Of a DNA stretch of 64,000 nt, positions 720-22,332 are shown piece after piece. Origin of the DNA: Nitrosopumilus sp. (lineage in GTDB: Archaea; Thermoproteota; Nitrososphaeria; Nitrososphaerales; Nitrosopumilaceae); the NCBI GenBank assembly GCA_965214775.1, contig OZ243974.1, positions 2,560,001-2,624,000 on the forward strand, in the 5' to 3' direction. The notes beneath the pieces were generated by a model. It saw only the letters and a list, made by a program, of their open reading frames with translations. It ran no database searches and was not told the origin of the DNA. The position numbers and the translations under genes are program-made. The first letter of the stretch is position 1. Every line of letters begins with the position of its first letter.

Positions 720-1037
720 ATGGAATTGCTAGACGATAAGATGAGGGTTTGGATTCAAAGTGCAAAATTTGTAAAACCCGTTCCGGGGGTTTATGTCCTG
801 TACAGCAAAAGCGAAGAGCCGATCTACATTGGCAAGACAGATAATTTGAAAGAGACCTTTACAAAATACGTGGATCAGGATTTTGATGGAAACGAATGCA
901 AGCAGAAAACTTCATCGTATCAGAGAGAATTTACAGACAGTCCGAAGGAAAGACATGCTCAGTTAATTGAAGACTTTAAAAAAGAATATGGAAAGTTTCC
1001 CTCATGTAATTCCCAAATCAAAGTAGAGACTCGATGA
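720..1037 (+). CDS. small GIY-YIG nuclease-like protein
   Basis: PGVYVLY...IYIGKTDNL motif, 105 aa. Confidence 0.75.
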   Translation: MELLDDKMRVWIQSAKFVKPVPGVYVLYSKSEEPIYIGKTDNLKETFTKYVDQDFDGNECKQKTSSYQREFTDSPKERHAQLIEDFKKEYGKFPSCNSQIKVETR

Positions 1038-4957: not shown

Positions 4958-5048
4958 GTAAGAGTTTATCCCTCACCTGAGATACGGCGGGTCAGGCGTG
5001 ATCATGAAGGTTCCAGACAGCAGTGACGCCTAAGGGATAAACTCGTAC
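4958..5048. mobile_element. MITE family F (GTAAGAGTTTA ends), 8-bp TSD AGGCAAAC, inside an IS630 remnant
   Basis: AGGCAAAC at 4950-4957 and 5049-5056; flanks read CYEKANS...RFGKI.IFVDNASHRKSK; homologue at 42030. Confidence 0.85.
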
Positions 5049-5435
5049 AGGCAAACAGCGCCGACGGCAGCTCTTGATCTTCCAAACGGATGTACAAAAG
5101 ATTCGGAAAGATATGATATTTGTGGACAACGCCTCGCACCGCAAGTCAAAGGCACCGTATTACGTCCTCAGATTTCTAGGCGCAAAACAACCATCCGAAT
5201 TTCCTAGGAGTGTCTGATTTTATTGAGGGCATGATGTCGCACAGTTAAAGAAGGCAAAAAGGCATCAGAGGAATCGACGGCGACATAATACTGCAGTGCC
5301 TCAATGACGTGATCAAGCGCTGCATCTCAGACTATGGGATGATGCCAAAACCCCCTCCGCCGGTGCCTCCATGAGTTACTTCTGGGAAGACTGTACTGAG
5401 AGTTTGATTTAAAATTAGCAGATTTACAACTGAAC

Positions 5436-5532
5436 GGGTTCTGAAAGCCGTCTCGGATTTTAGGCACAAATTCTGTTTGAACAGCCCTTTTTGGTGGCAA
5501 AATTTCTGCCTGAACTTCCAGAGCCTGAGATG
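5436..5532. mobile_element. degenerate MITE family E copy
   Basis: Internal sequence GATTTTAGGCACAAATTCTGTTTGAACAG...GAACTTCCAGAGCC matches the 35783 copy; ends eroded. Confidence 0.7.
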
Positions 5533-5842
5533 TTGTTTGCAAACACCTGTTTGAAATTATCAAAAAAATGAAATTTATTTTTGGAATCTTTGTAATACAT
5601 CTTATCAACATGTGATACAAACTATATCATGAGACAAAATTCTGAAAAATACAATTTATGTACAAAATGTAACCAGATATCATTTTCTTGTGACTGTGAA
5701 TGTGCGTTTTGTGGAAAAAAGGAAGAATGTGACTGTGAATCGGTGCCCATAATAATTCCATAGCTTTTCTCAGGCTCGATGAAAAATTTTTCATGTAAAA
5801 GATGATAAAAAATTTACTTTGTTTCAGCAATACTCTTTTTTC

Positions 5843-5934
5843 GTATGTGGTCACCTACCCCTATCAATTAGGCATGAATTGGCATGTACAATGTGATTTT
5901 CGTGCCTAGATAGCAAGGGGACGTGACCACGTAC
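5843..5934. mobile_element. MITE family C, 8-bp TSD CTTTTTTC
   Basis: GTATGTGGTCAC...GTGACCACGTAC with CTTTTTTC at 5835-5842 and 5935-5942. Confidence 0.9.
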
Positions 5935-5953
5935 CTTTTTTCCAACCGTGGTA

Positions 5954-6200
5954 ATGTCAACAATTAAAGCACATTATATCAAAGCACGAAAAAAGGTATC
6001 AATGAAAAACCCTCAACCATATCTGATGAAAAATGGCACATGGGCACTAAAAGGGACTAGCACAGACAGGAATGAAAATATTCAAGATTGTGGACAAGAC
6101 TAGGCCTGAAATAAAAAATTTCCGTTTCTCATCATTCATGAGTCTGTTTACAGACAGACAATGCAAGAGTCAAAAAACATGCCAGTCTAAATTTTTGTGA
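5954..6200 (+). pseudogene. DUF5679/Cc1-like small basic protein, apparently frameshifted
   Basis: MSTIKAHYIKARKKVSMKNPQPYLMKNGTWALKGTSTD then TGMKIFKIV in another frame; not in ORF track. Confidence 0.5.
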
Positions 6201-6288
6201 ATTGCAAGATTTGAGAGATCATGGAGATCATCCAGCTGAGCGTTGAGTTTTTTTTAAGAATTAAATTTGATATGATTTCAGAAAGAAC

Positions 6289-6789
6289 ATGTCTTTTGAG
6301 ATTGACTGGAAAAGAAATTTTTATGGAATTTCTTGGGCGTATGAAAAGGACAGACTAGTTATCTCCACGGTATTTGAGGATAAAAAAGAAGCAATGTTGG
6401 TTGCCAAAGAAGTTGAAGATTGGAGTGATAGATTTACAAGATTAACAATCATAGAAAAGGCAAACGATGAGTTTGCAATTTGTTGCTACCAAGATCCGCA
6501 AATTTCCAAAAAGAAAAACCATGTCGGATTGTTTAGAACCGGAATGAGACAAAGTGGAGGATATAAACAAGCCAAACCGATGATCGAAGAAAAATCCCCG
6601 TTATTACAAATCGCATATGCCGCAGATGCAAGAGACATGAACACGTATGAGCAAATTTCAAGACTGGTTCCAATGCGAAAATGCAGAATTATCTCAGAAA
6701 AAGACTTGAAAAAACAAGAGTACTTTTACGAAAAAACCGCAAATTTTGAAAGTCATGGAAAAATGACGGGGTTCAAACCAGAAATTTGA
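6289..6789 (+). CDS. hypothetical protein
   Basis: 166-aa ORF with ATG start. Confidence 0.75.
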   Translation: MSFEIDWKRNFYGISWAYEKDRLVISTVFEDKKEAMLVAKEVEDWSDRFTRLTIIEKANDEFAICCYQDPQISKKKNHVGLFRTGMRQSGGYKQAKPMIEEKSPLLQIAYAADARDMNTYEQISRLVPMRKCRIISEKDLKKQEYFYEKTANFESHGKMTGFKPEI

Positions 6790-6924
6790 ATCTGGCACCG
6801 TCCATGATCATCCGTATCACATGTGAAAAAAATCGAATCTGAAGAAGATCCATATTTCAGGTCTCGAAGATTACACAGAACCCCCCACAACACTCTTTAT
6901 ATTCATAAATGACCTCTTACATAT

Positions 6925-7560
6925 ATGGCAATGGTAAACGAGCTGAAGAACCCGTTTGATTATTTTAGATCTGAGTTGGAGAACGTTTTTGGAGTTGAAC
7001 AAAAACAGCTAAACGCATTGATCAGCGCCTACAATAAAACCGGTTATAACACACCGCTCAAAAAACTTGCCGAGATGCTTGGATCTGAAAACGACTATGG
7101 TTTTGCTGAGGTGCATATATTTCCCCTTTGTTGTGTTTCTTACGAATATTTTCAAAGCAAAGACAATACCAATACATTCCTAGCAAAGTCAAACCTCACA
7201 CCAAAAACCAAGAAATCTATCAAGTATTTTTTTTCCAAACTAACTGATAAAGGGCTGCGTGGCTTGGAAGTTCAATATCATGTTTATGGAAACCTGTTTG
7301 ATTTCCAAGCACTGGATCCTATAAGCGACAATAACATACTACTAGAAATAAAAGATCAGTCTAACAAAGCCGTCTGCTATCTTCCTGTTACTAGAATCAC
7401 GTTTGCCCGTGGTGGCGACGATGAAAAAACAATATCGTCTGAATTTTCTCAGGATAGGCTGGCTCATCTCATCTCAACACTACAGTCAATTTATGATAGA
7501 AACTCCGCACTGACTAAAACATATAAAAAATCCATAAAAGACCTGCCTGTGATTGAATAA
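6925..7560 (+). CDS. hypothetical protein, candidate prokaryotic COMMD-like protein
   Basis: 211 aa; helical N-terminus and C-terminal YLPVTRITF...TISSEFSQDRLAHLISTLQSIY resembling a COMM domain; TTTATA at about 6896. Confidence 0.6.
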   Translation: MAMVNELKNPFDYFRSELENVFGVEQKQLNALISAYNKTGYNTPLKKLAEMLGSENDYGFAEVHIFPLCCVSYEYFQSKDNTNTFLAKSNLTPKTKKSIKYFFSKLTDKGLRGLEVQYHVYGNLFDFQALDPISDNNILLEIKDQSNKAVCYLPVTRITFARGGDDEKTISSEFSQDRLAHLISTLQSIYDRNSALTKTYKKSIKDLPVIE

Positions 7561-7562
7561 AA

Positions 7563-8291
7563 ATGATGTCATATGCACAAGCTAGCACATCTGGAATCTC
7601 AAGGTCTCATTCTAGACGCTATCGACTTGTACGGGTAAAAACCAAGCACAAATCATCTAGCACATACGTACGATCTGGACTGTCGCCTAATTCATTAGAA
7701 TTCTTGAAGACCAAGGATACCATCAGGATTAGGCGTGCAAAAGTGGTGAAAATTCAGAAAATCGTACTGGCTGGATCAAACAAGCGGAACTATGCAACAA
7801 CTTCCATACGAGCGGATTCGAAAGAGAGAGTGGCCTATGTAAGGAAATTCTTTAGAAACCGTCCCAGAGTACAGCCCCATCGGGAATCAAAAACAAAAGA
7901 AATCCGTCGTTACATACAAACTCAGCAATGGGACAAGCTGGTTCCCTACGTGGATGAACTAATCCAGCAAATAGATCTGGGTGCAGTCGCCCTGCCCCTC
8001 ATATCAAAATTATTGGACTCTGTCACGCAGGACTATGCAGTCATGGAAAAAAATGCATTCATGCACGAGGTAATCCAGTCAGTCACCATTTTACTAAAGG
8101 ATGTCATGATATCTGCAATACAAAACAACACCGTTGACGCCATCAATAGTGCAAAACGCATCAGGGAAATTCTGCTGGCCGCGCAAGAAGTTTCTCGCGT
8201 TGCATCAGAGGAAGGCCTGTCTCCCTTGCCAGTGTCTAAACTAGTTCAAATTGACGTGATAAAAGGCAGGCCAATATATGCCCTCAAATAA
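7563..8291 (+). CDS. hypothetical protein, Arg/Lys-rich N-half and helical C-half
   Basis: 242-aa ORF starting 2 bp after the previous stop and overlapping the next gene. Confidence 0.65.
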   Translation: MMSYAQASTSGISRSHSRRYRLVRVKTKHKSSSTYVRSGLSPNSLEFLKTKDTIRIRRAKVVKIQKIVLAGSNKRNYATTSIRADSKERVAYVRKFFRNRPRVQPHRESKTKEIRRYIQTQQWDKLVPYVDELIQQIDLGAVALPLISKLLDSVTQDYAVMEKNAFMHEVIQSVTILLKDVMISAIQNNTVDAINSAKRIREILLAAQEVSRVASEEGLSPLPVSKLVQIDVIKGRPIYALK

Positions 8292-8634
8292 AGAAATCGT
8301 ACTAGTCAAGGATGGCGGTTCATATCCCGACAAGGTCATGCATGAGGGTGATTCACTAGGCATAGGTACTCAAACCCATTCCTTCTATTGGAAAAAGGAG
8401 GGGCCTCAAAACCACGACTATGAACCTCTTGCCATACTGTCTGCTGAAAGGTGTGGGCTGTCCAGATACCACTATCGAGGATTGGTCGTATGGAAAGACT
8501 ACACCGTTAAAAACGGCAAGCCGATAGCGTCATTTGCCCGGGTCTGGCACACCCCCGTTCTGTGCTCTACACATAAGATCACTTATTCTCAGCCATCGGA
8601 TGTTATTGATCGTTTAAAATTAATTGGGTATTTA

Positions 8635-9929
8635 GGCGTTGTCCGGAATCGTGATTTTAGGACGTGATTTCCGGGGAGATTTGTACAAAATCATGGCGCA
8701 ATGACTGCAAACATAGAGACGAATCCGCACTCCGGCCCGCATTGTGCAGTTATGGCCCGTGTTTTGACGTCATACTGCATAGCATCCGCTAGCCGGACGA
8801 TTCCACCGTACCGGCATTATGGATCCTAGCTGACCAGATTGTAGCAGAATACCTTGAGGGTAAGCCTGAGCGACTGCATCGGAAGCGACATGGCGCGCAC
8901 CGTGGAGTCAAACCTTGCCTTTATCGACGAGAAGGCCGACTCAACGAGGCTGCGCTGGTGGTACGTCTTCTCGAATCCCTCGGGGTCCTTTTTGTGCCAT
9001 CTTAGCATCTTGGAGCGGGCGTTGAACCCGTGAACCGTATATCCTGTACGCGGACATATCACTGGGGTTCTGCCTCCGTCGGCTATGACCCTGCAGTTCT
9101 CATACGAGTCGTATGCGGCATCCAGGATCACGTGTCCTGTGCCGTTGGGAACCTGCGGTAGCAGCTCGTTACGGAACACCGGGGAATCATGGAATTCGCC
9201 CGGCGTCACCTCGCAGGCGGCAATCTTGCCGTGCGGGGCCAACAGTATGTGCAGCTTGGCAAACATCTGCCTGGATATGACGCCCTTCTTTGCGTCCTCC
9301 CATGTGTGGTATCTCATTATGGAGAAACCGCTAGAGTCGCCAAGCAACGTTCCCCTGGCGTCTGCGCCTGCCTGTTCTGAGAGTACCGATCTTAGCACCG
9401 ACTTGTCCCAGGCAGCTATCCTTACGGCTGCATCATGCAGTGTCGACTTGGCCGGAACCTTTTTGAGCCCGTACATGTTAGTTGAACCAGGATTCGACTC
9501 CATGTATTCGACGTGCCTGCGATACGAGTTTCCGCGGTACTCCATGTCGAGTACGCACAGAAGATAGGGAATTTCATCCTCTTGCTCTGTGTTATGGAGG
9601 AGGGACAGGAGGATCTTGCGGATCTTTTTGATTCCGATGCCGCACCTCTTGCTGTCCTCTCTCCTTTTTTTCTCGTACTCGGCATAGTATTCCGGAGGTC
9701 TCGTGTACTCTGACTTTTTTTTCTTGCTGGTCTTGCTGGATTCCTTCTTGGATTCCTTCTTGGATTCCTTCTTGGATTCCTTCTTGGATTCCTTCTTGGA
9801 TTCCTTCTTGTTGGTCTTTGATTTCATTGATACGGGGACGTCGATCCTATGATCCATAAGGTTGTCGCATCCTGCGCTTATGATCTATAAGCTTATCGGT
9901 AGATTTCTGGAAAAATTCCGGACAACGCC
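8635..9929 (-). mobile_element. IS5-family element, 15-bp TIR GGCGTTGTCCGGAAT, 9-bp TSD GGGTATTTA
   Basis: TIRs and TSD (8626-8634, 9930-9938) read directly. Confidence 0.9.
8826..9857 (-). CDS. IS5-family DDE transposase with (KKES)6 tract
   Basis: GDSSG, KLH, HDSP, LDAAYD, YHQRSLVESAFSSIK motifs; 12-bp unit x6 at 9738-9809. Confidence 0.85.
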   Translation of the reverse strand: MDHRIDVPVSMKSKTNKKESKKESKKESKKESKKESKKESSKTSKKKKSEYTRPPEYYAEYEKKRREDSKRCGIGIKKIRKILLSLLHNTEQEDEIPYLLCVLDMEYRGNSYRRHVEYMESNPGSTNMYGLKKVPAKSTLHDAAVRIAAWDKSVLRSVLSEQAGADARGTLLGDSSGFSIMRYHTWEDAKKGVISRQMFAKLHILLAPHGKIAACEVTPGEFHDSPVFRNELLPQVPNGTGHVILDAAYDSYENCRVIADGGRTPVICPRTGYTVHGFNARSKMLRWHKKDPEGFEKTYHQRSLVESAFSSIKARFDSTVRAMSLPMQSLRLTLKVFCYNLVS

Positions 9930-10208
9930 GGGTATTTACTTCCCAAAATCCGACAAATGAGTAAAAACACAGACAAATATTCGGCGCGCGGATATGCTGA
10001 GAAAATTGTTGATGACAGGATTCCTCCTGAACGAAAACTCCGATGGAGTGATTTTGACTACTATGTTATGATTGCGCCTTTTTGCGACTATGGAAAACTC
10101 CCTGCAAAAATACCTGACAAGATAAACAAATTTGTAATGTGACAGCGTATGAGGCACATCCCCTTGCGAACCAAGCGTAAAAATCACATTTGCATACAAA
10201 TTTGCTCC

Positions 10209-10291
10209 TATAGCAACACGCAGAAGTCTTTGAGTCAAAACACGGTCAGATTGCCCGTGAAAGACCTCAATTACTTGTGACCGTTGCTATA
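10209..10291 (+). mobile_element. MITE family B
   Basis: TA-TAGCAACACGCAGAAGTCTTTGAGTC...CCTCAATTACTTGTGACCGTTGCTA-TA. Confidence 0.9.
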
Positions 10292-10363
10292 GCTGTTTGA
10301 GAGAAGATGACCCCGCACTTCGATCCCGGTAAATCACATATCCCTAAAAATCGTGGGCAAGCG

Positions 10364-10743
10364 GTGAGGGTCTTGGTGTATGACGAATGTGCAGTAGATG
10401 ACGATTATTCAAAAATTTTACAGATCAAGGACATTCCTGAACCCGTCCCAAAACCTAACGAAGTTGTTTTTAGAGTCGAGACGACAGATCTCAACTATGA
10501 TGATACTTGGGCAATGAGAGGAAAGCCCTTGGTAGTTCCCTTGTCGCACATCTCTGGCACCGATGCCGCAGGCGAGGTTACCACTGTGGGAGACGACGTT
10601 AAAAATTTCATAGTCGACAAAGTTGTCTCATGGAAACATGTCCTGCAAAGTTTGCAGGTACTACACAAGTGGAGAAGAATACAACCGCAAACAAAAAAAT
10701 TGAGGATTTGAAACCGGTTCGCTCTGGGGAGTGTACTGTGAAG
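10364..10743 (+). pseudogene. Zn-dependent (MDR) alcohol dehydrogenase 5' fragment
   Basis: KILQIKDIPEPVPKPNEVVFRV...HISGTDAAGEV; frameshifted near the structural Zn site and truncated. Confidence 0.75.
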
Positions 10744-10782
10744 GTTATGTGTAAAATTGGGGATATGGAATCCCCTCAAAAA

Positions 10783-10983
10783 TCACTCCATAGCCCTGTT
10801 GAGACTGGCATTCTGGATTATCGTCTTCCACTTGTTTGTACCGTCCATGCTTATCAGGGACGATTCTGCCGGGGTCTGGCCGTCCAGTGCACCGTGCTTT
10901 TTTGTATAATTACAGTAGACCCTCATCCCGTCAAGGATTGCAGTGTCGGCGGAGGCGGCCTGAAGTGAATTAGGCGACAACCA
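10783..10983 (-). mobile_element. transposase C-terminal fragment (IS6-like) abutting a family-A MITE end
   Basis: YCNYTKKHGALDGQTPAE...WKTIIQNAS; GAATTAGGCGACAACC at about 10967-10982. Confidence 0.6.
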
Positions 10984-11619
10984 CTATCTCAGGTGTCTAA
11001 GATTACAGAGTCCTTTAGGACGTGTTCCGTCAAGGATGACATCTACAAGTATCTTGAGCGCAGTGTGTAATCAGGCTAATTTTTCAATGATCATCAGTTA
11101 GGTCTTCTGCCTAGCTGTCAAAAGTGTCCTCTGACGGAGGTTTTCCAAAAATTTTATCAATCAATTTGAAAAAAGGACATTTTCCATCATACATGTTACT
11201 TGTACGACAGTTATCCTTAAAAATAATTCTGTGTTTGTTCAAGAAAAATTTTTGAGTAAATAAGTAAATCCCGGACAATGTCAGAAATTGTGCATACAGA
11301 AGAATGCAGATACAAAACGACTGACGATATGTCGCAGACTAGCTGTTGTTGTTAGACTTTATGCGCAACCGACACAGATCAAAAAAACCAGGCATATTTT
11401 ACGTCGTTTTTGACAGATACGCACAAAGCCGATTGCAAATGCCACAAAATCGTCATGGCCGAATCATCAAAATTGGAATCAGGATCTTTTTGAAGAACCA
11501 AAGCTGTCGATTATTTCAGTAACGTTTGCAAGAATGGTTTTTTTGATATCTTCTTTTTTCATTCCAGAGGCAGACATTAGCTTCATTTGATCCATCAATG
11601 CAAAATGAACCCTTCCTTG

Positions 11620-13746
11620 GTACAACTTCAGGTCCTTTTTATACTGACAGTCAAACATTTTTGGGCAGCATCTTATGATCAGATGCCCCTCCGAACATGG
11701 CTGAACATCAGACATTTGTGATCAGACATTGCAGGTTTGGAATTTACGGGAGTGACATAATATCGGCATCTTGGTCAAAGAATTTCGATGGAAATCTTTT
11801 TTGATCTTGCCTGTCTGATGTAACATATGGACTCCAAAGCCGTGCTTGCACACTGTACGGATCCTGGAAAGGCACTTGTCATGATCATGGAGCAGGATGA
11901 GAAGATCTCCGGGCTGGAAAAAGAACTCTCTATTGTCAAGAAGGAGAATGCTGATGTCAAGAAGGAGAACTCTAAGCTTCAGGCAAGGCTTGCCCTGTAC
12001 GAGAGTCCCAACATGCCCACGTCCACGCCGTCATTATACAATGATGCCAGAAGAAAGTTCAGGGAGAAAAGGGGCGAGGATCCCGGCGGCAGTCCCGGCG
12101 ATGCTGCTCGGGGCAAGAAACGCGGCCCTCCGTGCGGACACCATGGTACATCGCACGGCAACCGGCCATCAATGACATTAAGGTACGATCTTGGCTCCAA
12201 AATATGCCCAAAGTGCAACATCCAGTTACGGATGCTCAAGCCGATCCACAAGCTTGTAAACGACCTGGACGGTTTTATGCGCATGCTCACTGCCAATGCC
12301 ATCATCCAAAACGCGGTGTGTCCACAGTGCAATACCGTGCATGTCGCAGCTACCCCGTTTCTAAGCGGCACGTCACTTGGGCCCGTCTCACTCTCTCTAA
12401 TCATGATGTTCTTTGAGAAGGGAAACACAGACGAGGACATTGCAGAGTACTTTCAGTATATGTTTGGATTCAAGATGGCCCCAAATACCGTGACTGCCGC
12501 CCGGCACGCAGTGGCAGAGGCGATTCAACAAAACATGATACAACGCATACAGTCATTCATTGCGGGCAGGCCGTGGATACAGATGGACGAGACCGGATTT
12601 AAGCGCGGCGACGGACACATGGGATACGTCTGGGTGCTCAACTGCGAGGGGGCGTGCTTTGTGGTATTTGCAGATTCCCGGTCCTCTGAGGTACTGCACA
12701 CGCACTTTGGATGGCTGGATCCCAAGACTCCCATAGTCGTAGACGGACTGGCCCAGTACAAGCTGTTCTTTGTGACAATCCAGAGGTGTTGGAGGCACCT
12801 TCTGGCGTATGCAGAAAAGCTTGCAGTAAAGATGCCCGAAGGCGATAACGAGAAAAGGTATGACTTGCTGCTGGAATTCTACAGGAAGATAGATAAAATC
12901 AAGACGCTTGCGCCGCTTACATGCATGGAGCTTTCCAGGGAAGTATACAAAATAATCAACCCGTATGAGGACGTTCACGTGCGTACACACCTGCTAAACG
13001 CCATACATAACATGTTTACGTGTCTGGCGCATCGGGGAATGCCGCTGCACAACAACGATACGGAGCGGTGCATACGCGACGGGATCATACCACAACGCAA
13101 TGCACGTCACAAGATTGTAACTGACGGGGGAAGAAAGACGGCTTCTGCGCTGCTGACATTTTCGATGACATGTCGCAAGCAGAATATACATCCTGCCGGC
13201 GGACTCTTGAAATACCTGCGGAATCCGGGCTGGGATGTCTTTGCAGAAGCAGGAGATGATGATGATAATGCGCGCCTGCTGTCCTCGCTTGCCAATACGG
13301 ACGGTACAAGATACAGCGTCTTTGAGTGTCCCGGGCCGCCGCCGGCGTGGCCGCCTGTAGTCGATGATGACGCAGGCAGTGAAGGAGGAGCGGTACGCCG
13401 GAACCGGACGGCCGTCGTACCAGCAGCAGCAGCTCCCATAACAACATGATCCGTCTGGCGCCTACGGGACGGCGTAACCCGTAGCTTTATGTCAAAGAAT
13501 CCGGCCGTGTAGGCAAGTCTGCCAGTCAACAACGCCTGACAAATCTGACAATGCTGGTTTCCTGCAGGTGCCGTCTGCCAATAATCTGTTGTCTGCCAAT
13601 AATCTGTTGTCTGCGCGCTGCCGGTCTTGCATATACAAGGGACGTGTGATGATGATGTAGCGGGTCTGTCACAGCAGATGCGGAAGGATCAAAAAGTTCC
13701 GGGCAAAAAGTTCCCTAGTCAGTATAAAAAGGACCTGAAGTTGTAC
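11620..13746 (+). mobile_element. IS66-family single-ORF element (ISBst12-like), copy 1, 2127 bp
   Basis: 29-bp TIR GTACAACTTCAGGTCCTTTTTATACTGAC; 8-bp TSD CTTCCTTG (11612-11619, 13747-13754). Confidence 0.92.
11827..13449 (+). CDS. IS66-family transposase
   Basis: Coiled coil, CPKC/CPQC Zn finger, MDETG, QRCWRHL, HNNDTERCIR motifs. Confidence 0.9.
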   Translation: MDSKAVLAHCTDPGKALVMIMEQDEKISGLEKELSIVKKENADVKKENSKLQARLALYESPNMPTSTPSLYNDARRKFREKRGEDPGGSPGDAARGKKRGPPCGHHGTSHGNRPSMTLRYDLGSKICPKCNIQLRMLKPIHKLVNDLDGFMRMLTANAIIQNAVCPQCNTVHVAATPFLSGTSLGPVSLSLIMMFFEKGNTDEDIAEYFQYMFGFKMAPNTVTAARHAVAEAIQQNMIQRIQSFIAGRPWIQMDETGFKRGDGHMGYVWVLNCEGACFVVFADSRSSEVLHTHFGWLDPKTPIVVDGLAQYKLFFVTIQRCWRHLLAYAEKLAVKMPEGDNEKRYDLLLEFYRKIDKIKTLAPLTCMELSREVYKIINPYEDVHVRTHLLNAIHNMFTCLAHRGMPLHNNDTERCIRDGIIPQRNARHKIVTDGGRKTASALLTFSMTCRKQNIHPAGGLLKYLRNPGWDVFAEAGDDDDNARLLSSLANTDGTRYSVFECPGPPPAWPPVVDDDAGSEGGAVRRNRTAVVPAAAAPITT

Positions 13747-15089: not shown

Positions 15090-15752
15090 CTATGAATTGT
15101 TCAGATAATATTTCTCAATTCTTTCATTCATTGGCCCGACATAATCAGCACATGGTTTGATGAATTCCTGGCGAGTGTTTTTTTCACTGCTTACCAGTAT
15201 TACCACTTGGTTGATTTTTTGCCCGGTAACTTCTTCAAACATCTGTGCATAACAGGTTGTTTGCAAATAATATTCATACATGTATTCGTCAATCTGGGGT
15301 TTTCTCTTGGTTTTGTAATCGATTATGGAAAGATCCCCGTTGTATTTGGCAATCAAATCGCTGGTTCCTGCAACCCGTAGTCTGTCTGAATACATCCTTT
15401 GTTCAGTACATACCACTTCTGAAATATTTTCCAAATACGGCTTTAGGTTGTGAAAATGTGCAAGTGGCAGCAAGTCAAATTCTTCCATGTTCAGGGATCC
15501 GCCAAGATAATCTTCTATGATTTTATGGGATTGTGTGCCTATATCTTGTGCCTGTGCTGTGATATATTCGTGGGCCGGTTCACCCTCTTTCCAGGAGGCA
15601 AGGCCGTTCTTTTTCTCATCTGAGGCTGTTGCAGAAAGAACAGTGTTTACTGAGGGATAGACATTGTCAAATTTTGTCTTGTACCAATGCCCGTCTTCTC
15701 GATCCAGCAGTGTGGGTTCCCGTGTTTTTAGCATTTGCAAAAAATTCGCCAT
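15090..15752 (-). CDS. PD-(D/E)XK exonuclease (RecB/MGME1-like)
   Basis: YPSVNTVL, GTQSH, AGTSD, IIDYKT, YYLQTTCY motifs. Confidence 0.85.
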   Translation of the reverse strand: MANFLQMLKTREPTLLDREDGHWYKTKFDNVYPSVNTVLSATASDEKKNGLASWKEGEPAHEYITAQAQDIGTQSHKIIEDYLGGSLNMEEFDLLPLAHFHNLKPYLENISEVVCTEQRMYSDRLRVAGTSDLIAKYNGDLSIIDYKTKRKPQIDEYMYEYYLQTTCYAQMFEEVTGQKINQVVILVSSEKNTRQEFIKPCADYVGPMNERIEKYYLNNS

Positions 15753-16608: not shown

Positions 16609-17958
16609 GTGAACACCTTTGGAAGCCATCAACCCAGCATAATTCCCCTAGAGTTAACTGAAAACCAATTTCAGATATATGGCAAGATTTCCAGAAATTA
16701 TGATCATTCTTTTCTCTTTGAGTCCTTGACAGGTCCTGAAGTTCTAGCCGAAACATCAGTAATGGGTTTTGACCCAAAAAAAATCATCACGGGATTTTCA
16801 GACAGGGTGGAAATTATTTCCAAAGACAAGACAGAAACAATCCAAGCAAGGGATCCGTTTGCAGAAATCAAGAAGCTGTTGAGAAGATCAGAGAACCAGA
16901 GCTACCGGTATCTTGGAGGGGCAGTAGGTGCAGTAAACTATGATGCCATCAGACTGGTAGAAGACATTCCTGATTCAAATTCTTCAGCAGACCCGCTTAT
17001 GGAGTTTGGAATATATGATGACGGGATACTGTACGATAACTTGCACAAAAAATTATTTTACTTTTACTACGATGAGAATCGATTTGACCAATTCAAGATA
17101 TCTGACGATGTGTTCGGGAAATACAGCGCTACGGGGGCCATTCCAAACTCAAACAATGAACAGTTCGCAGAAATGGTAAACAAGGCAAAGAAATACATCC
17201 ATGATGGAGACATCTTTCAGGTTGTCCTGTCAAGAAAATTTGTATTCGAGTCGTCAGGGGATGATTTAACGCTGTACAAGACTTTGAGAAAGATGAATCC
17301 TTCGCCGTACATGTACCACTTGAAGCAGGGACAAAAGACCATCATCGGCGCATCCCCCGAAATGCTAGTCCGAATTACAAACGACAGGGTTGAAACGTTC
17401 CCTATTGCAGGTACAAGAAAAGTTACCGGTGATGATGATGAAAACAGGAGACTGGCAGGGGAATTACTCGATGATGAAAAGGAATTGGCAGAACATACCA
17501 TGCTGGTGGATTTGGGAAGAAATGACATTGGAAGAGTATGCAAGTTTGGAACGGTTCGTCCAGAATCACTGATGCAGATTAAGCGATTCAGCCATGTTCA
17601 ACACATTGTCACTCATATTGTGGGCAATCTGGCCCCAAAAAATGACATGTTTGATGCCTTCAAGGCGGTATTTCCTGCAGGAACCGTTTCTGGGGCGCCA
17701 AAAGTAAGAGCCATGGAAATCATCGACGAGCTAGAAAGCGAGGCCAGAGGCCCATATGCAGGGGCCGTAGGGTATTTTTCGTACAACGGATGCTGCGATT
17801 TTGCAATTGCCATAAGAAGCATTTTCATAGAGGACGGCAAAGGGTTTTTGCAGTCCGGGGCAGGCATTGTTTCAGATTCCGTTGCACAAAACGAATTCAA
17901 GGAAACAGAACACAAGGCAGGAGCCATGCTTCAAGCATTAAGGGAGGCATCAAATTGA
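16609..17958 (+). CDS. trpE: anthranilate synthase component I
   Basis: FLFES, GDIFQVVLS, ASPE, PIAGT, EHTMLVDLGRND, GTVSGAPK. Confidence 0.97.
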   Translation: MNTFGSHQPSIIPLELTENQFQIYGKISRNYDHSFLFESLTGPEVLAETSVMGFDPKKIITGFSDRVEIISKDKTETIQARDPFAEIKKLLRRSENQSYRYLGGAVGAVNYDAIRLVEDIPDSNSSADPLMEFGIYDDGILYDNLHKKLFYFYYDENRFDQFKISDDVFGKYSATGAIPNSNNEQFAEMVNKAKKYIHDGDIFQVVLSRKFVFESSGDDLTLYKTLRKMNPSPYMYHLKQGQKTIIGASPEMLVRITNDRVETFPIAGTRKVTGDDDENRRLAGELLDDEKELAEHTMLVDLGRNDIGRVCKFGTVRPESLMQIKRFSHVQHIVTHIVGNLAPKNDMFDAFKAVFPAGTVSGAPKVRAMEIIDELESEARGPYAGAVGYFSYNGCCDFAIAIRSIFIEDGKGFLQSGAGIVSDSVAQNEFKETEHKAGAMLQALREASN

Positions 17959-18545
17959 AATTTTTGATCATAGACAATTACGATTCGTTTGTTTTCAATA
18001 TCGCCCAATACTTGGGGGAAATCGGAGTCGATTCAGACGTAGTACGGAACGACAAGATCACATTAGAAGAGATCAAAGAATCAGATTATGATGCCATCAT
18101 AATCTCTCCTGGTCCGGGAACTCCCGAAGATAAAAGGTACTTTGGCGTGTGCAGCGATGTCATCAAAGACATCGGAAGGCAGACCCCCATACTCGGGGTC
18201 TGTTTAGGACATCAAGGAATCATTCACGCGTTTGGAGGAAAAGTAACAAATGCAGGATGTGTCAGGCATGGAAAAACAAGTCCGATAAACCATGAGAATT
18301 CGAGACTGTTCAGGGATGTAAGGAATCCGTTTAGAGCAACCAGATATCACAGTTTGGTAGGAGACAAGGCAATAATTCCAGACATTCTTGAAGTCACGGC
18401 AACTGCAGCTGATGATGGGGAGGTCATGGCAATCAGACACAAGGAATTCCTGATCGAGGGGGTTCAGTTTCATCCAGAGTCAATCATGACCGAAGATGGA
18501 AAGAAGATTTTGGAGAATTTTGTAAGCGAGGTGAAAACAAGATGA
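17955..18545 (+). CDS. trpG: anthranilate synthase component II
   Basis: IIDNYDSF, SPGPG, GVCLGHQ, QFHPES; TTG start overlapping trpE stop. Confidence 0.96.
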   Translation: MKFLIIDNYDSFVFNIAQYLGEIGVDSDVVRNDKITLEEIKESDYDAIIISPGPGTPEDKRYFGVCSDVIKDIGRQTPILGVCLGHQGIIHAFGGKVTNAGCVRHGKTSPINHENSRLFRDVRNPFRATRYHSLVGDKAIIPDILEVTATAADDGEVMAIRHKEFLIEGVQFHPESIMTEDGKKILENFVSEVKTR

Positions 18546-19585
18546 CCATTGTGGAAATTATCTCAAAATTACAAGGCAGGGCGGATCTTACATACGATGA
18601 GATCAACGGCGTCATGGCAAACGTTCTTTCCGGAGACACGACGCTTGAAGAAAACATGGAATTCCTGTCAAGCCTTGCTGAAAAGGGGGAGACAGATGAC
18701 GAGTTATTCGGGATGCTTGAGAAGATGCAAGAACTGTCGCTGAAAGTTGATCTAAGGACAGACGGGACAGTCATTGACATGTGTGGAACCGGGGGAGACA
18801 GATTGCAGACGTTTAACATCTCAACTGCGGCATCATTTGTGGTTGCTGCAGCAGGAGGCAAGGTTGCAAAGCATGGCAACCGATCTAGCTCAGGCGTTTC
18901 AGGCAGTGCAGACATCTTTGAGTATTTCGGATACGATTTGAACCAAGAGCCATCCAAGATTGCCAAAACGCTAGAAAAGCACAACATCTGTTTCATGTTT
19001 GCACAGAAATTCCATCCAGCTATGAGGCATGTTGGGCCTGCAAGAAAGCAGCTGGGAAGAAGAACCGCGTTTAACCTGCTAGGACCGCTGTCAAATCCGG
19101 CAAATGTAAAGAATCAACTGGTGGGGGTCTTTTCAATCGAGTATCTAGACAGACTTCCTTCCATTCTAAAGAGAAGGGGAGCTGAAAACATCATGACGGT
19201 ACGCTCGGATGATGGAATGGACGAATTTTCAACCAGTTCTGTCAACAGGGTGTGCATTCTAAGGGATGGCAGGGTTCTGACATATGCAATAGATCCTGAA
19301 ATTCTCGGACTGCACAAGTCAAATCTTAAAGACATTCAGATCGCAACAAAAGAAGAGGCAGTCAGTTCCTTTGTCAGCGTGCTAAACAATACAGCAAACA
19401 GGTCAATGATTGAAACATGTGCGCTAAACGCAGCAGGGGGTTTGATTGTCGCAAACAAGGCTGCAAATTTTGAGGAGGCAGTTCAAATCGCATTAAATAC
19501 GATTGATAGCGGAGATGCATTCAAATTGTTAGAGAGTTTTCTCAAGGATGCAGGAGACATTTCAAGATTAAGGGAGACGGCATGA
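18542..19585 (+). CDS. trpD: anthranilate phosphoribosyltransferase
   Basis: CGTGGD, FNIST, KHGNRSSSG. Confidence 0.97.
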   Translation: MTIVEIISKLQGRADLTYDEINGVMANVLSGDTTLEENMEFLSSLAEKGETDDELFGMLEKMQELSLKVDLRTDGTVIDMCGTGGDRLQTFNISTAASFVVAAAGGKVAKHGNRSSSGVSGSADIFEYFGYDLNQEPSKIAKTLEKHNICFMFAQKFHPAMRHVGPARKQLGRRTAFNLLGPLSNPANVKNQLVGVFSIEYLDRLPSILKRRGAENIMTVRSDDGMDEFSTSSVNRVCILRDGRVLTYAIDPEILGLHKSNLKDIQIATKEEAVSSFVSVLNNTANRSMIETCALNAAGGLIVANKAANFEEAVQIALNTIDSGDAFKLLESFLKDAGDISRLRETA

Positions 19586-20361
19586 TGGCTGAAAATATTC
19601 TAAGAAAACTGGTAAGCAATTCCCAAGTGGCAATAGATGACGGAACATACGACATAGATGTCAATTTAGAAAGATCTCAGAAAGACTTTATTCAGATAAT
19701 CAGCACAAATCCACACCCAACCCTTCTGACTGAAATCAAATTCGCATCGCCGTCGCTAGGAAAAATAAGAACTGTTTCAGATCCTGCAAGCGTGGCAAAA
19801 CAGATGATTTCTGGAGGCTCAAGGGCACTCTCGGTTCTGACACAGCCGCATTTGTTTAGCGGTTCGCCAGATTATTTTATCAAGGTAAGAGAGGCAGTAG
19901 GCGTTCCCCTGCTGATGAAAGACATCATGATAGACAAAATCCAAATTGACGCTGCTAAAAAGATGGGTGCAGACTATATACTTCTAATACAGTCATTGTT
20001 TGACAATGGGTTTCTAAGTGAAATTGGCGAGTTTATCGATTACGGGCACAAAAAAGGATTGAAGATACTGCTTGAAGTCCACACAAAAGACGAATTCAAA
20101 AATGCACTAGGGACAAATGCGGACCTGATTGGAATCAACAACAGGAATCTAGATACTCTGGAGATCGATCTTGGCACTACCAGAAAGGTTCTTGAGAACT
20201 TTGATGGTTCTCGTCCAATTCTCTCTGAGAGCGGGATTCAAACGCCAGAAGACATCCGGTATTTGAAGAAATGCGGCGCCAAGGCATTTCTGGTCGGCTC
20301 AAGCATTATGAAAAGTGGCGGCATTGAAGAACAAGTAAGGGGGTTGGCAAGGGCATATTGA
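19582..20361 (+). CDS. trpC: indole-3-glycerol phosphate synthase
   Basis: [26 protein letters not shown]. Confidence 0.95.
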
Positions 20362-21545
20362 AATATCCCAAAAATGGCAAGTTTGGCGAATTTGGAGGAA
20401 AGTTTATTCCCGAAACACTGGTTCCTGCAGTCGAGGAGCTGGAAGAAAACTATCTCAAATTTAGGAACAACAAGGAATTCAAAGAAGAGCTGAGGTATTA
20501 TCTCAAAGTGTATGCCGGAAGGCCAACCCCGCTATACTATGCAAAAAATCTCTCAGAAAAGCTAGGCGGCGCCAGAATCTACCTAAAAAGAGAGGATCTG
20601 CTTCACGGGGGGGCGCACAAGATCAACAACACGCTAGGCCAGGCCCTTCTTGCAAAAAAAATGAAAAAAAAGAGAATCATTGCCGAAACAGGAGCCGGAC
20701 AGCACGGAGTAGCCACAGCAATGGCATGTGCTGCACTTGGAATGAAGGCAGAGGTATACATGGGATACAAGGACACGATTCGTCAAAAACTCAACGTGTT
20801 TAGAATGAATTTGCTCGGCTCGCAAGTGCACCCGGTAAAATCAGGCTCAGAGACTCTCAAGGATGCAATCAACGAGGCAATCCGAGATTGGATTACCAAT
20901 GTAGAGGCAACATACTACCTTCTTGGCTCAGCTGTAGGGCCTCACCCGTATCCTGTAATGGTCAGAGACTTTCAAAGTGTGATTGGAAACGAGATAAAAT
21001 CACAGATGAAAAAAATAAACAGGGCGCCAGACAATGTTATTGCTTGCGTTGGGGGAGGATCAAATGCCATTGGAACGTTTTACCCACTAGCAGACACGGA
21101 TGCAGAAATTATAGGAGTAGAAGCTGCAGGGCACGGATTAAAGTCAAAGAAACATTCAGCAACGCTGTCTGCAGGAAGCAAGGGGGTCTTGCACGGAATG
21201 ATGACATATCTGCTGCAAGACAAGGAAGGTCAGATTGCTCAAACGCACAGTATTTCAGCTGGACTGGACTATCCCGGAGTCGGGCCTGAACATTCCTACC
21301 TCAAGGACACAAAACGTGTAAAGTATCATGCTGCAACTGACTCTGAAGTAATTGACGCGTTTTTGATGCTGACAAGAACAGAAGGGATCATTCCGGCATT
21401 AGAATCGGCACATGCAATTGCCGAGGCAATCAAGGTAGCAAGGAAGGCAAAGAAATCAGAATCAGTTGTCGTAACGCTTTCAGGAAGGGGGGACAAGGAT
21501 GTCGAAGAGGTACAAAACCATTTGAATAAAAATGTCAAGGATTAA
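20358..21545 (+). CDS. trpB: tryptophan synthase beta chain
   Basis: [27 protein letters not shown]. Confidence 0.97.
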
Positions 21546-22332
21546 GAAAAAATTCACAGAGTTGAATTCAAGAAATCAAAAGGCCCTGATTTCATATATT
21601 ATGGCAGGGTATCCAGACGAAGAGGCGACGCTTGCCATAGTAAGGGGATTGGTCAAGGGAGGGGCAGACATCATTGAACTGGGCTTTCCATTTTCAGATC
21701 CTCTGGCAGACGGGCCAGTCATTCAGAATGCAGGCACAATTTCGCTGGAAAGTGGCACAAAGACAGGGGGGTTTTTCAGCATTGTCAAGAAGATCAGAAG
21801 GGAGACAGATATTCCGCTTGTACTGATGACGTATACCAACATTCTGTACCGCAGAGGATTTTCAAGGTTCATCGCAGATGCAAAAAATGCAGGGATTGAC
21901 GGGTTTATTCTTCCGGACATGTCAATTGAAGAGTCAGGAGAATACCTCAAGGCCGCAAAAAATCATGCAGATACAATCTTCCTGATTTCGCCGAATACCG
22001 GCAAGGCAAGAATCGACAAGATTGCCAGGGCATCGTCAGGATTTCTGTATCTAGTTGCAGTGTTTGGGACAACCGGAGTCAAAACCGGGGTTAAGAGATA
22101 CACGCTGGATGCGATAAAAAAAGTAAAGAGGCAGACCAAGGGAAAAATTCCAGTCGGGATCGGTTTTGGAGTTTCAACGCCCCGGGACGTTAAAAGATAC
22201 GTCAGGGCAGGCGCAGATGCAGTAATCGTGGGAAGTGCGTATTTGAAGCTAATAGAAAAGACCCCGGAAAAACAACTAGAATCAAAAATATCGTCGTTTA
22301 CAAGGCAGTTAAAAAAAGAGACGGTTCTCTAG
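21532..22332 (+). CDS. trpA: tryptophan synthase alpha chain
   Basis: [28 protein letters not shown]. Confidence 0.97.

Follow-up and report, generated by a model that had tools for sequence, protein, structure and literature searches.

The cassette analysed here, three co-directional forward-strand genes within a 64,000-nucleotide stretch of Nitrosopumilus DNA (the window), is a rare accessory module of Nitrosopumilaceae-type archaea, with a conserved core consisting of the gene 2-gene 3 pair and with gene 1 separable from it. As the best explanation, we tentatively favour the possibility that genes 2 and 3 constitute an inhibitor-effector pair of the toxin-antitoxin kind, to which a COMMD-like scaffold (gene 1) has been added. 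The preliminary description of the locus, borne out in its observations and in part of its interpretation, had suggested a defence system, a proposal that found no direct support: PADLOC reported 0 families in 4 of 4 pieces, and a scan of viral contigs with the A1 profile yielded no relatives. The horizontal acquisition that it also put forward is conjectural.

Layout of the cassette and its mobile surroundings

The features of the locus are as follows.

6828..6883, no strand assigned: short repeat immediately adjoining the cassette on its left, with ~6 further copies in the genome
6896..6901, forward strand: TATA-like box TTTATA, read in the sequence and conserved, flanks included, in the paralogous copy
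6925..7560, forward strand: gene 1, 211 aa, COMMD-like (helical HN domain and COMM domain) according to its predicted structure and structural match
7563..8291, forward strand: gene 2, 242 aa, an ORF with 4 homologues (alignments A3, A7 and A8), comprising a basic variable N-terminal part and a conserved C-terminal part with the tail IDxIxG(R/K)P(I/V)Y
7677..7807 (extent ~7669-7813), no strand assigned: MITE copy within gene 2, read through in frame and adding ~44-46 codons (aa 39-82)
8278..8634, forward strand: gene 3, first 119 codons, an ORF with 8 homologues in a family of predicted NLP fold; holds D47, E49, P50, R63, H65, H91 and P93
8626..8634, no strand assigned: left copy of the 9-bp target duplication GGGTATTTA, supported by the sequence, by the empty site in the sister genome and by 9 shared letters at the contig joint
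8635..9929, reverse strand: insertion sequence (IS), 1295 bp, with 15-bp terminal inverted repeats and a transposase ORF at 8826-9857 (reverse strand; Pfam DDE_Tnp_1, 2.1e-15)
9930..9938, no strand assigned: right copy of the 9-bp target duplication, supported by the sequence and by contigs
9939..10142, forward strand: gene 3, last 67 codons and stop, in frame if the IS and one copy of the duplication are left out; equivalent to residues 120-186 of P0010
10209..10289, no strand assigned: second MITE, directly downstream of gene 3, with up to 102 overlapping matches in the genome

The tight coupling of the genes that had been read from the sequence was confirmed, with a 2-bp gap between genes 1 and 2 (7561-7562) and a 14-nt overlap between the end of gene 2 and the start of gene 3 (8278-8291). 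The TTTATA box was likewise found where it had been claimed, upstream of the gene 1 ATG at 6925, and we infer a promoter function for it; its centre lies ~26 nt 5' of the ATG, a spacing that fits a leaderless archaeal transcript.

Gene 2 carries 32 lysine and arginine residues in the 121 residues of its N-terminal half versus 12 in the 121 of its C-terminal half, in agreement with the Arg/Lys-rich N-half noted earlier. Gene 2 had been proposed as a nucleic-acid binder, a putative role; its basic half is variable, partly encoded by the MITE and missing from short forms in other lineages; the homologues without the MITE measure 194-196 aa versus 242 aa here. The MITE is present in the genome in at least 41 other copies (42 matches including itself, and up to 60 overlapping matches). 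The brief matches to gene 2 found at other places in the genome were considered as paralogues and rejected, as they are copies of this MITE. Neither Pfam, NCBIfam, PADLOC nor the PDB sequences contained a match to gene 2, and no DNA-binding domain was found in it.

Gene 3 is interrupted by the IS after codon 119 (8634), and its two parts together (119 + 67 codons) give a protein of 186 aa, the length previously proposed for the third gene. The 3' part was matched by the A5 profile (E 3.1e-10), an intact 186-aa form is present in the sister genome (P0010, 98% identical), and unsplit gene 3 with identical flanks persists in public contigs. The interrupting element is a DDE-transposase IS displaying all the marks of one: transposase, inverted repeats, target duplication, up to 18 copies in the genome and a site that is empty in L011 as well as in contigs from the X1, X5 and X6 runs.

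The copy numbers of the repeats around the cassette bear out the earlier view of the region as a MITE- and IS-rich zone. The downstream MITE is missing from both the sister genome and an X6 contig, and a paralogous copy of the cassette elsewhere in the genome is partial, genes 2 and 3 being gone from it. That the genes are passengers of a mobile element or a provirus remnant, serving the element and not the cell, is suggested by this second partial copy, by the homology to the paralogue and to the sister genome, which begins at the same point (6891/6892, just 3' of the short repeat), by the transposase genes that flank the cassette in L011, L012 and L039, and by a weak terminase-like ATPase 2 kb downstream in one genome (G159; E 2.4e-5, under the Pfam cut-off). 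We regard this origin as highly improbable, however, given that several families (DDE_Tnp_1, rve, IS1595 and IS66) are represented among the flanking transposases, that the surroundings of the cassette showed no terminal repeats in common, that relatives were absent from the viral contigs (A1) and from PHROGs, and that the stretches examined in G505 and G023 hold no transposase beside the pair.

Distribution of the array and its two-gene core

Gene 1 was detected in 9 and gene 3 in 12 of 401 genomes of the class, and gene 3 in 9 of 401 genomes drawn from the phylum, frequencies at odds with the core-gene status that the preliminary description had named as grounds for refutation. Its other such ground, homologues that never co-occur, was equally contradicted: genes 1 and 3 share a genome in 6 of the same 401-genome draw and form one array in all 6. 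Weak A5 matches in seven genomes (G097, G176, G248, G412, G507, G662 and G761; E 1e-4 to 1e-8) were excluded from the co-occurrence counts because they were unreliable, some of them lying inside long or stop-ridden frames. The G097 match falls within a beta-helix/NosD protein.

The claimed three-gene operon is a real, conserved array that opens with gene 1, closes with gene 3 and has a single ORF in the middle; it exists in three deeply diverged versions, between which the identities of gene 1 drop to 22-30%. The middle ORF is detectable as gene 2 by HMM only in version (a); in the two arrays that have diverged most (L019; L022/L023), the gene in this position escapes the gene 2 profile and lacks the conserved tail. 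Gene 2-gene 3 pairs with overlapping stop and start, unaccompanied by gene 1, were found in G023, G106, L013/L014, G505 and G671, the G505 and G671 genomes belonging to another class of the phylum. The two genes overlap by 50 nt in G505 and are adjacent or overlapping in L038, L026, L013 and L041. Overall, at least four genomes have the pair but lack gene 1, and three have gene 1 but lack gene 3.

This organization resembles that of type II toxin-antitoxin systems in its two-gene core, overlapping stop and start, smaller upstream partner and patchy distribution, as well as in the toxin-antitoxin-type neighbours present in one genome (G505), where the pair sits between a DUF4258/DUF2283 pair and a HepT-like/nucleotidyltransferase gene. 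It differs from them in that the proteins are larger than usual and match no known toxin or antitoxin family, and in that gene 2 has no recognizable DNA-binding domain.

The COMMD-like protein and its candidate partners

[quoted passage not shown] The model of gene 1 (pLDDT 84.7) consists of helices at residues 10-124, strands at 130-143, 149-162 and 169-175 and a helix at 176-203, and it matches solved COMMD or COMMD-like chains (9Q6A and 9Q6C) over its whole length. The protein is thus COMMD-like as judged from its modelled structure, as had been proposed, and an oligomeric scaffold role is therefore plausible for it. Among the 11 members of the gene 1 family, Pfam COMM_domain (PF07258) detected one, marginally and short of the cut-off (E 0.012).

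Prokaryotic COMMD-like proteins, including those of structures 9Q6A and 9Q6C, were described by Liu et al. (Nat Commun 2026, PMC13392464), who, in the portions of the article consulted, state that such members escape sequence searches, report no partners or interacting neighbours for them and call their function unclear; their archaeal list already includes a Nitrososphaerales entry. [quoted passage not shown] No such operon was met among the listed titles on COMMD-like proteins or in those portions of PMC13392464. The nearest parallel in that article is provided by Myxococcota COMMD-like genes located near type VI secretion-like clusters, where, as here, a COMMD-like gene stands beside toxin- or effector-type genes; the partner genes are different, however, the cassette contains no secretion components, and the Myxococcota association is reported as synteny only, with no complex predicted. 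As a COMMD-like gene is kept beside a gene 3 homologue, with a coupled ORF in between, across deeply diverged archaeal lineages, the cassette supplies concrete candidate partners and a first gene context in which archaeal COMMD-like proteins can be tested.

We consider it unlikely that a putative COMMD-like ring, gene 2 and the putative NLP-fold protein of gene 3 make up one membrane-directed complex; if they did, they would represent the first defined partner set, and hence a functional handle, for prokaryotic COMMD-like proteins, and gene 3 would open up an archaeal, cytoplasmic branch within the NLP cytolysin fold. Distinctly unlikely, in our estimate, is an assembly in which the gene 1 ring and a putatively helical gene 2 adaptor would place gene 3 on the membrane, as a prokaryotic counterpart of the COMMD ring with its coiled-coil partners. 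Such an assembly would be in keeping with the COMMD-like nature of gene 1, with the six of six shared genomes in which genes 1 and 3 are separated by a single ORF, with the binding of lipid head groups by NLP-fold proteins mentioned in the sections of PMC6743777 consulted, and with the lack of partners reported in those of PMC13392464. It accords poorly with the separate occurrence of gene 1 and of the pair and with the lack of any demonstrated likeness between gene 2 and CCDC22 or CCDC93.

The predicted NLP-like fold of gene 3 and readings of the pair

The gene 3 family comprises 78 cluster representatives and is unnamed. Across 56 of its sequences, D47, E49, P50, R63 and P93 never vary, whereas conservation is 90% or higher for H65 and H91; the YHYRG and WHTP motifs, singled out early on as possibly catalytic, contain the conserved residues R63, H65, H91 and P93. 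The model of the intact homologue P0010 (pLDDT 94.2) retrieved NLPs as the top Foldseek rows (probability 0.84-0.89), with structures 3GNZ, 3ST1, 5NNW and 9WSC covering 116-126 residues across model residues 1-178. Only the match to NLPs, or Nep1-like cytolysins, is clear, and it is also the best one; the predicted fold of gene 3 resembles theirs. Metallo-beta-lactamase rows in the same search were discarded as noise because of their rmsd of 9-13 and TM below 0.2. To our knowledge, published accounts of the NLP cytolysin fold, a central beta-sandwich with helices, have until now concerned only proteins secreted by bacteria, fungi and oomycetes. Should the likeness be real, the fold reaches into archaea and into an intracellular environment, where a dedicated partner protein accompanies it; the literature on NLPs contained no archaeal NLP among the matches listed.

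The Pfam NPP1 profile (PF05630) recognized none of the 56 family members at E<=10, and none of 6 gene 3-bearing genomes gave a match to it. The heptapeptide GHRHDWE does not occur in the family (consensus ..DYEP..), in which its aspartate and glutamate are invariant and its histidines are not conserved. In the NLP termed NLPPya, Mg2+ is bound directly by Asp104 and Glu106 of this motif, as described in the consulted sections of PMC6743777, and the invariant D-x-E on the central strand of gene 3 is reminiscent of these two residues, as their putative counterpart. The same sections describe NLPs that are secreted and bind plant sphingolipids, a difference from the gene 3 family, which has no signal-like N-terminus: a crude hydropathy scan revealed a hydrophobic N-terminal stretch in 0 of 56 members, and the protein appears from its sequence to be cytoplasmic. 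Because the predicted fold is NLP-cytolysin-like and the D, E and R residues are invariant, with near-invariant H residues, an effector role for gene 3 is plausible.

Under the preferred inhibitor-effector explanation, a pocket formed by D47-x-E49 together with R63, H65 and H91 would hold a divalent cation and the polar head group of a lipid or sugar, the use of D47 and E49 paralleling, by analogy, that of Asp104 and Glu106 in NLPs. Gene 3 would then harm the membrane or another target from the cell interior, the conserved tail of gene 2 would bind and restrain it, and the putative gene 1 ring would serve the pair as scaffold or switch.

The same residues, invariant D, E and R with conserved H, would suit a ligand or metal pocket equally well in a harmless accessory complex devoid of toxin logic, in which gene 3 would bind or hydrolyse sugar or polar-lipid head groups in a cation-dependent manner, for example in envelope or glycolipid turnover, with gene 2 as chaperone or regulator and gene 1 as an optional assembly platform. 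Non-toxic NLPs do exist, such as HaNLP3, which retains the motif yet causes no necrosis, according to the sections of PMC6743777 consulted; moreover, the intact gene 3 allele is kept in the population and no defence family was matched. We nevertheless rate this alternative as doubtful in view of the rare, patchy distribution of the genes, the ease of loss and decay in this genome, the toxin-antitoxin-type genes flanking the pair in G505 and the fact that no enzyme family was matched in any search. These searches returned nothing above the cut-offs of Pfam, NCBIfam and PHROGs for the three cassette proteins and their families, and nothing below E 0.2 in PDB sequence-profile searches with A5, A2 and A3.

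Turning back to the toxin-antitoxin-like pair, the lack of matches in Pfam, NCBIfam, PHROGs, PADLOC or NPP1 speaks against it too, as do the secreted nature of the NLPs described in PMC6743777 and the tail-less middle gene of L019 and L022/L023; the neighbourhood argument comes from one genome (G505), and gene 1 and the pair are also found apart. On its side stand the array kept in three diverged versions, the COMMD-like gene 1, the NLP rows and invariant residues of gene 3, the patchy distribution and the overlap of the upstream partner with the downstream putative effector, and it is the downstream gene 3 that is broken here, with genes 2 and 3 both gone from the paralogous copy. Both G000 and G023 have a similar PD-(D/E)XK gene close to the cassette, a neighbourhood in line with the harmless complex and one that may reflect old vertical inheritance.

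Architecture and decay of the cassette

The tight coupling of the three genes proposed in the preliminary description was borne out by reading of the sequence, with respect to the TTTATA-to-ATG spacing, the gap between genes 1 and 2 and the overlap between genes 2 and 3. The reconstruction of gene 3 as a 186-aa protein also holds, its 119 and 67 codons being in frame across an insertion sequence (IS).

Features of the cassette and its surroundings (window positions)
6828-6883, short repeat, 6 copies (BLAST)
6896-6901, + strand, TTTATA box, ~26 nt upstream of the gene 1 ATG at 6925
6925-7560, + strand, gene 1, ORF of 211 aa
7563-8291, + strand, gene 2, ORF of 242 aa, 2-bp gap after gene 1
About 7669-7813 (BLAST match stretch 7677-7807), MITE in gene 2, read through in frame (aa 39-82)
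8278-8634, + strand, 5' part of gene 3, 14-nt overlap with gene 2
8626-8634 and 9930-9938, 9-bp target duplication flanking the IS
8635-9929, - strand, IS of 1295 bp with 15-bp terminal inverted repeats, interrupting gene 3 after codon 119
8826-9857, - strand, IS transposase ORF (Pfam DDE_Tnp_1, 2.1e-15)
9939-10142, + strand, 3' part of gene 3, where the frame resumes
10209-10289, second MITE, up to 102 matches in the genome (BLAST)
10307-10968 (listed also as 10307-10708), alcohol-dehydrogenase-like gene (ADH_N, 9e-8), apparently broken into overlapping frames, with one to two related genome copies
11827-13449, IS66-family transposase ORF, 540 aa (Pfam 1.3e-19)
15093-15752, - strand, PD-(D/E)XK, Cas4-like nuclease gene, near the cassette and beside the trp operon
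16609-22332, trp operon

Decay of the cassette in this assembly is established. The empty IS site was found in the sister genome (L011, a Nitrosopumilaceae archaeon MAG), where 6892-8634 and 9930-10210 are contiguous, with 98.5% and 99.6% identity, respectively. The unsplit joint (8625 joined to 9930, nine shared letters) is also present in contigs of three public sequencing runs (X1, X5 and X6), indicating that the unsplit allele coexists with the split one, although these contigs give no allele frequencies. The X1 contig, with gene 3 unsplit, shows no differences from the window across 1852 bases; the IS insertion is thus polymorphic or very recent. BLAST of window positions 5001-11900 against the whole genome yielded up to 18 additional IS copies and up to 60 overlapping matches to the gene 2 MITE, which, with the second MITE and the 6-copy repeat, substantiates the MITE/IS-rich setting described previously. 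The first part of the examined IS66-side stretch (11619-11900) recurs up to 32 times across the genome.

The in-frame MITE supplies some of the Arg/Lys-rich N-half ascribed to gene 2, but the N-half is basic even without the MITE (22 K+R in 77 residues versus 12 in 121 in the C-half). Gene 2 homologues lacking the MITE are 194-196 aa long versus 242 aa with it. The sister genome also encodes a 242-aa gene 2 product with the in-frame MITE, and P0007, a homologue of different origin with 78% identity, begins inside the MITE-encoded stretch and so apparently contains it, suggesting that the insertion has been tolerated over some evolutionary time. An extra, C-terminally shorter gene 2 paralogue (L012:4119-4760, profile E 1e-32) lies 2.6 kb upstream of the L012 cassette, with no adjoining gene 3.

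The window's genome (G000) carries a second copy of gene 1 (1398477-1399103, - strand; 209 aa, protein 78% identical), at which genes 2 and 3 are absent. The surrounding region (G000:C1:1398365-1399144, equivalent to L009:8366-9144, minus strand) retains the same promoter region; gene 2 gives way to a MITE after its first 16 nt.

Distribution of the three genes

A word-based search against 5.8 billion protein clusters returned 5 homologues of gene 1, 4 of gene 2 and 8 of the first 119 residues of gene 3 (E<=1e-3). None of the three proteins matched Pfam, PHROG, NCBIfam, PADLOC or PDB sequences, and a scan of viral contigs with alignment A1 found no relatives. In a class-wide draw of 401 genomes, 9 gave a match to the gene 1 profile and 12 to that of gene 3, eight of the latter strongly (E<1e-20); hence, these are not core genes of the class.

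The preliminary description had made co-occurrence of homologues a test of its proposal. All six genomes of the draw with both gene 1 and gene 3 contain a single array, with gene 1 first, one intervening ORF and gene 3 last, although these arrays are not independent and represent three diverged versions: (a) G000, G288 and G247, (b) G159, and (c) G132 and G336. Gene 1 of versions (b) and (c) is, respectively, 30% and 22% identical to that of the window. Their middle ORF lacks the conserved tail, was not detected with the gene 2 profile and can be equated with gene 2 by position only. Thus, the operon structure and its conservation are established, and gene 1 is always linked to gene 3 when both are present. 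Cassettes at L011, L012 and L039 are flanked by transposases of several different families. That the genes are passengers of a mobile element appears quite improbable.

Gene 1 is missing beside the gene 2-gene 3 pairs of G023, G106, metagenome contigs L013 and L014, and G505 and G671, the last two from another class of the phylum. In these pairs gene 2 carries the tail IDxIxG(R/K)P(I/V)Y and its stop overlaps or abuts the gene 3 start; the gene 1 profile has no matches anywhere in the four genomes. Conversely, G002, G207 and G250 (a fragmented assembly) contain gene 1 with no gene 3 anywhere. That gene 1 and the pair can be separated is therefore established, and the pair emerges as the core, with gene 1 as an add-on.

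Predicted folds of genes 1 and 3

The gene 1 model, built from an 11-sequence alignment (pLDDT 84.7, pTM 0.69), places helices in residues 10-124, followed by three strands within 130-175 and a long helix (176-203). A Foldseek comparison with PDB structures produced 17 matches at E<=1e-3, the best 10 of which are all COMMD or COMMD-like, led by 9q6a_B, an octameric COMMD-like protein of bacterial origin (E 1.4e-6, 215 columns). Pfam COMM_domain was reached by one of the 11 family members (E 0.012). The COMMD-like label assigned previously was thus correct, and by its predicted fold gene 1 belongs to a family in print since 2026. In the available text, Liu et al. report 111 archaeal members, one with a taxid resolving to a Nitrososphaerales archaeon, show that the subunits form rings of eight or ten, obtain no predicted partners from neighbouring genes and call the function unclear (PMC13392464). 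The cassette provides a concrete candidate partner set for this question of prokaryotic COMMD-like protein function. A membrane assembly centred on the COMMD-like protein seems improbable for a cassette whose core dispenses with gene 1.

Queried with the gene 3 profile, a full HMMER search recovered an unnamed family of 78 cluster representatives at E<=1e-3 (38 at E<=1e-10, 10 at E<=1e-30), nearly all of 130-240 aa. In a 56-sequence alignment, D47, E49, P50, R63 and P93 are invariant, and F36, H65, F86, H91 and Y138 reach at least 90% conservation; the YHYRG and WHTP motifs, singled out earlier, both fall on conserved positions. The model of P0010, the intact 186-aa homologue from the sister genome, based on this alignment (pLDDT 94.2, pTM 0.90), contains nine strands within 9-103, then helices at 109-127 and 177-185 with a strand at 160-165 between them. 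Foldseek gave no matches at E<=1e-3; the top rows were Nep1-like (NLP) toxins (3gnz, 5no9_A, 5nnw_B and 6qbd_A; E about 0.1, probability 0.77-0.89), aligned from residue 1 to 163-178 of the model. The predicted likeness to the NLP fold is modest. According to the available text of PMC6743777, NLPs bear the heptapeptide GHRHDWE, bind Mg2+ directly through Asp104 and Glu106, hold a plant sphingolipid by its sugar head in a crevice and resemble actinoporins in fold. Gene 3 has an invariant D-x-E on a central strand, but the rest of the heptapeptide is absent, and a signal-like N-terminus was seen in none of the 56 members. NPP1 (PF05630) matched 0/56 members at E<=10 and none of the six gene 3-holding genomes; there is no support for placing gene 3 in the NPP1 family. 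Among the 12 entries listed by a literature search on NLPs and archaea, none was a paper on archaeal NLPs.

Possible function and neighbourhood

Tentatively, we infer that genes 2 and 3 might constitute an inhibitor-effector pair. The two-gene core overlaps, with the partner upstream, its distribution is rare and patchy, and in G505 its neighbours are of toxin-antitoxin type (a DUF4258/DUF2283 pair on one side, a HepT-like/nucleotidyltransferase gene on the other). The loss pattern also fits, the IS having struck the downstream gene here and the paralogous copy having lost genes 2 and 3, and the gene 3 fold has no known relatives other than cytolysins, whose pocket accommodates a cation and a head group. 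Against this reading, there were no matches to defence or toxin families, and the resemblance to NLPs is modest. A harmless ligand-binding or enzymatic complex, which could likewise employ such a pocket, is rather unlikely. The association of COMMD-like, putatively helical and NLP-fold genes was not found in the literature searched, although further supplements of PMC13392464 may hold neighbourhood tables.

In G159, ORFs of 140 and 343 aa lie ~1-2 kb downstream of the cassette (L039:10454-11897), the larger with a weak, below cut-off terminase-ATPase-like match (GpA_ATPase, E 2.4e-5); they may be a provirus remnant. A short ORF at window positions 720-1034 has a marginal GIY-YIG nuclease match, just under the cut-off (E 2.2e-4). 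A PD-(D/E)XK gene also lies 1 kb from the pair in G023 (L038:7076-7741), and this neighbour, found in G000 too, may be left over from shared synteny.
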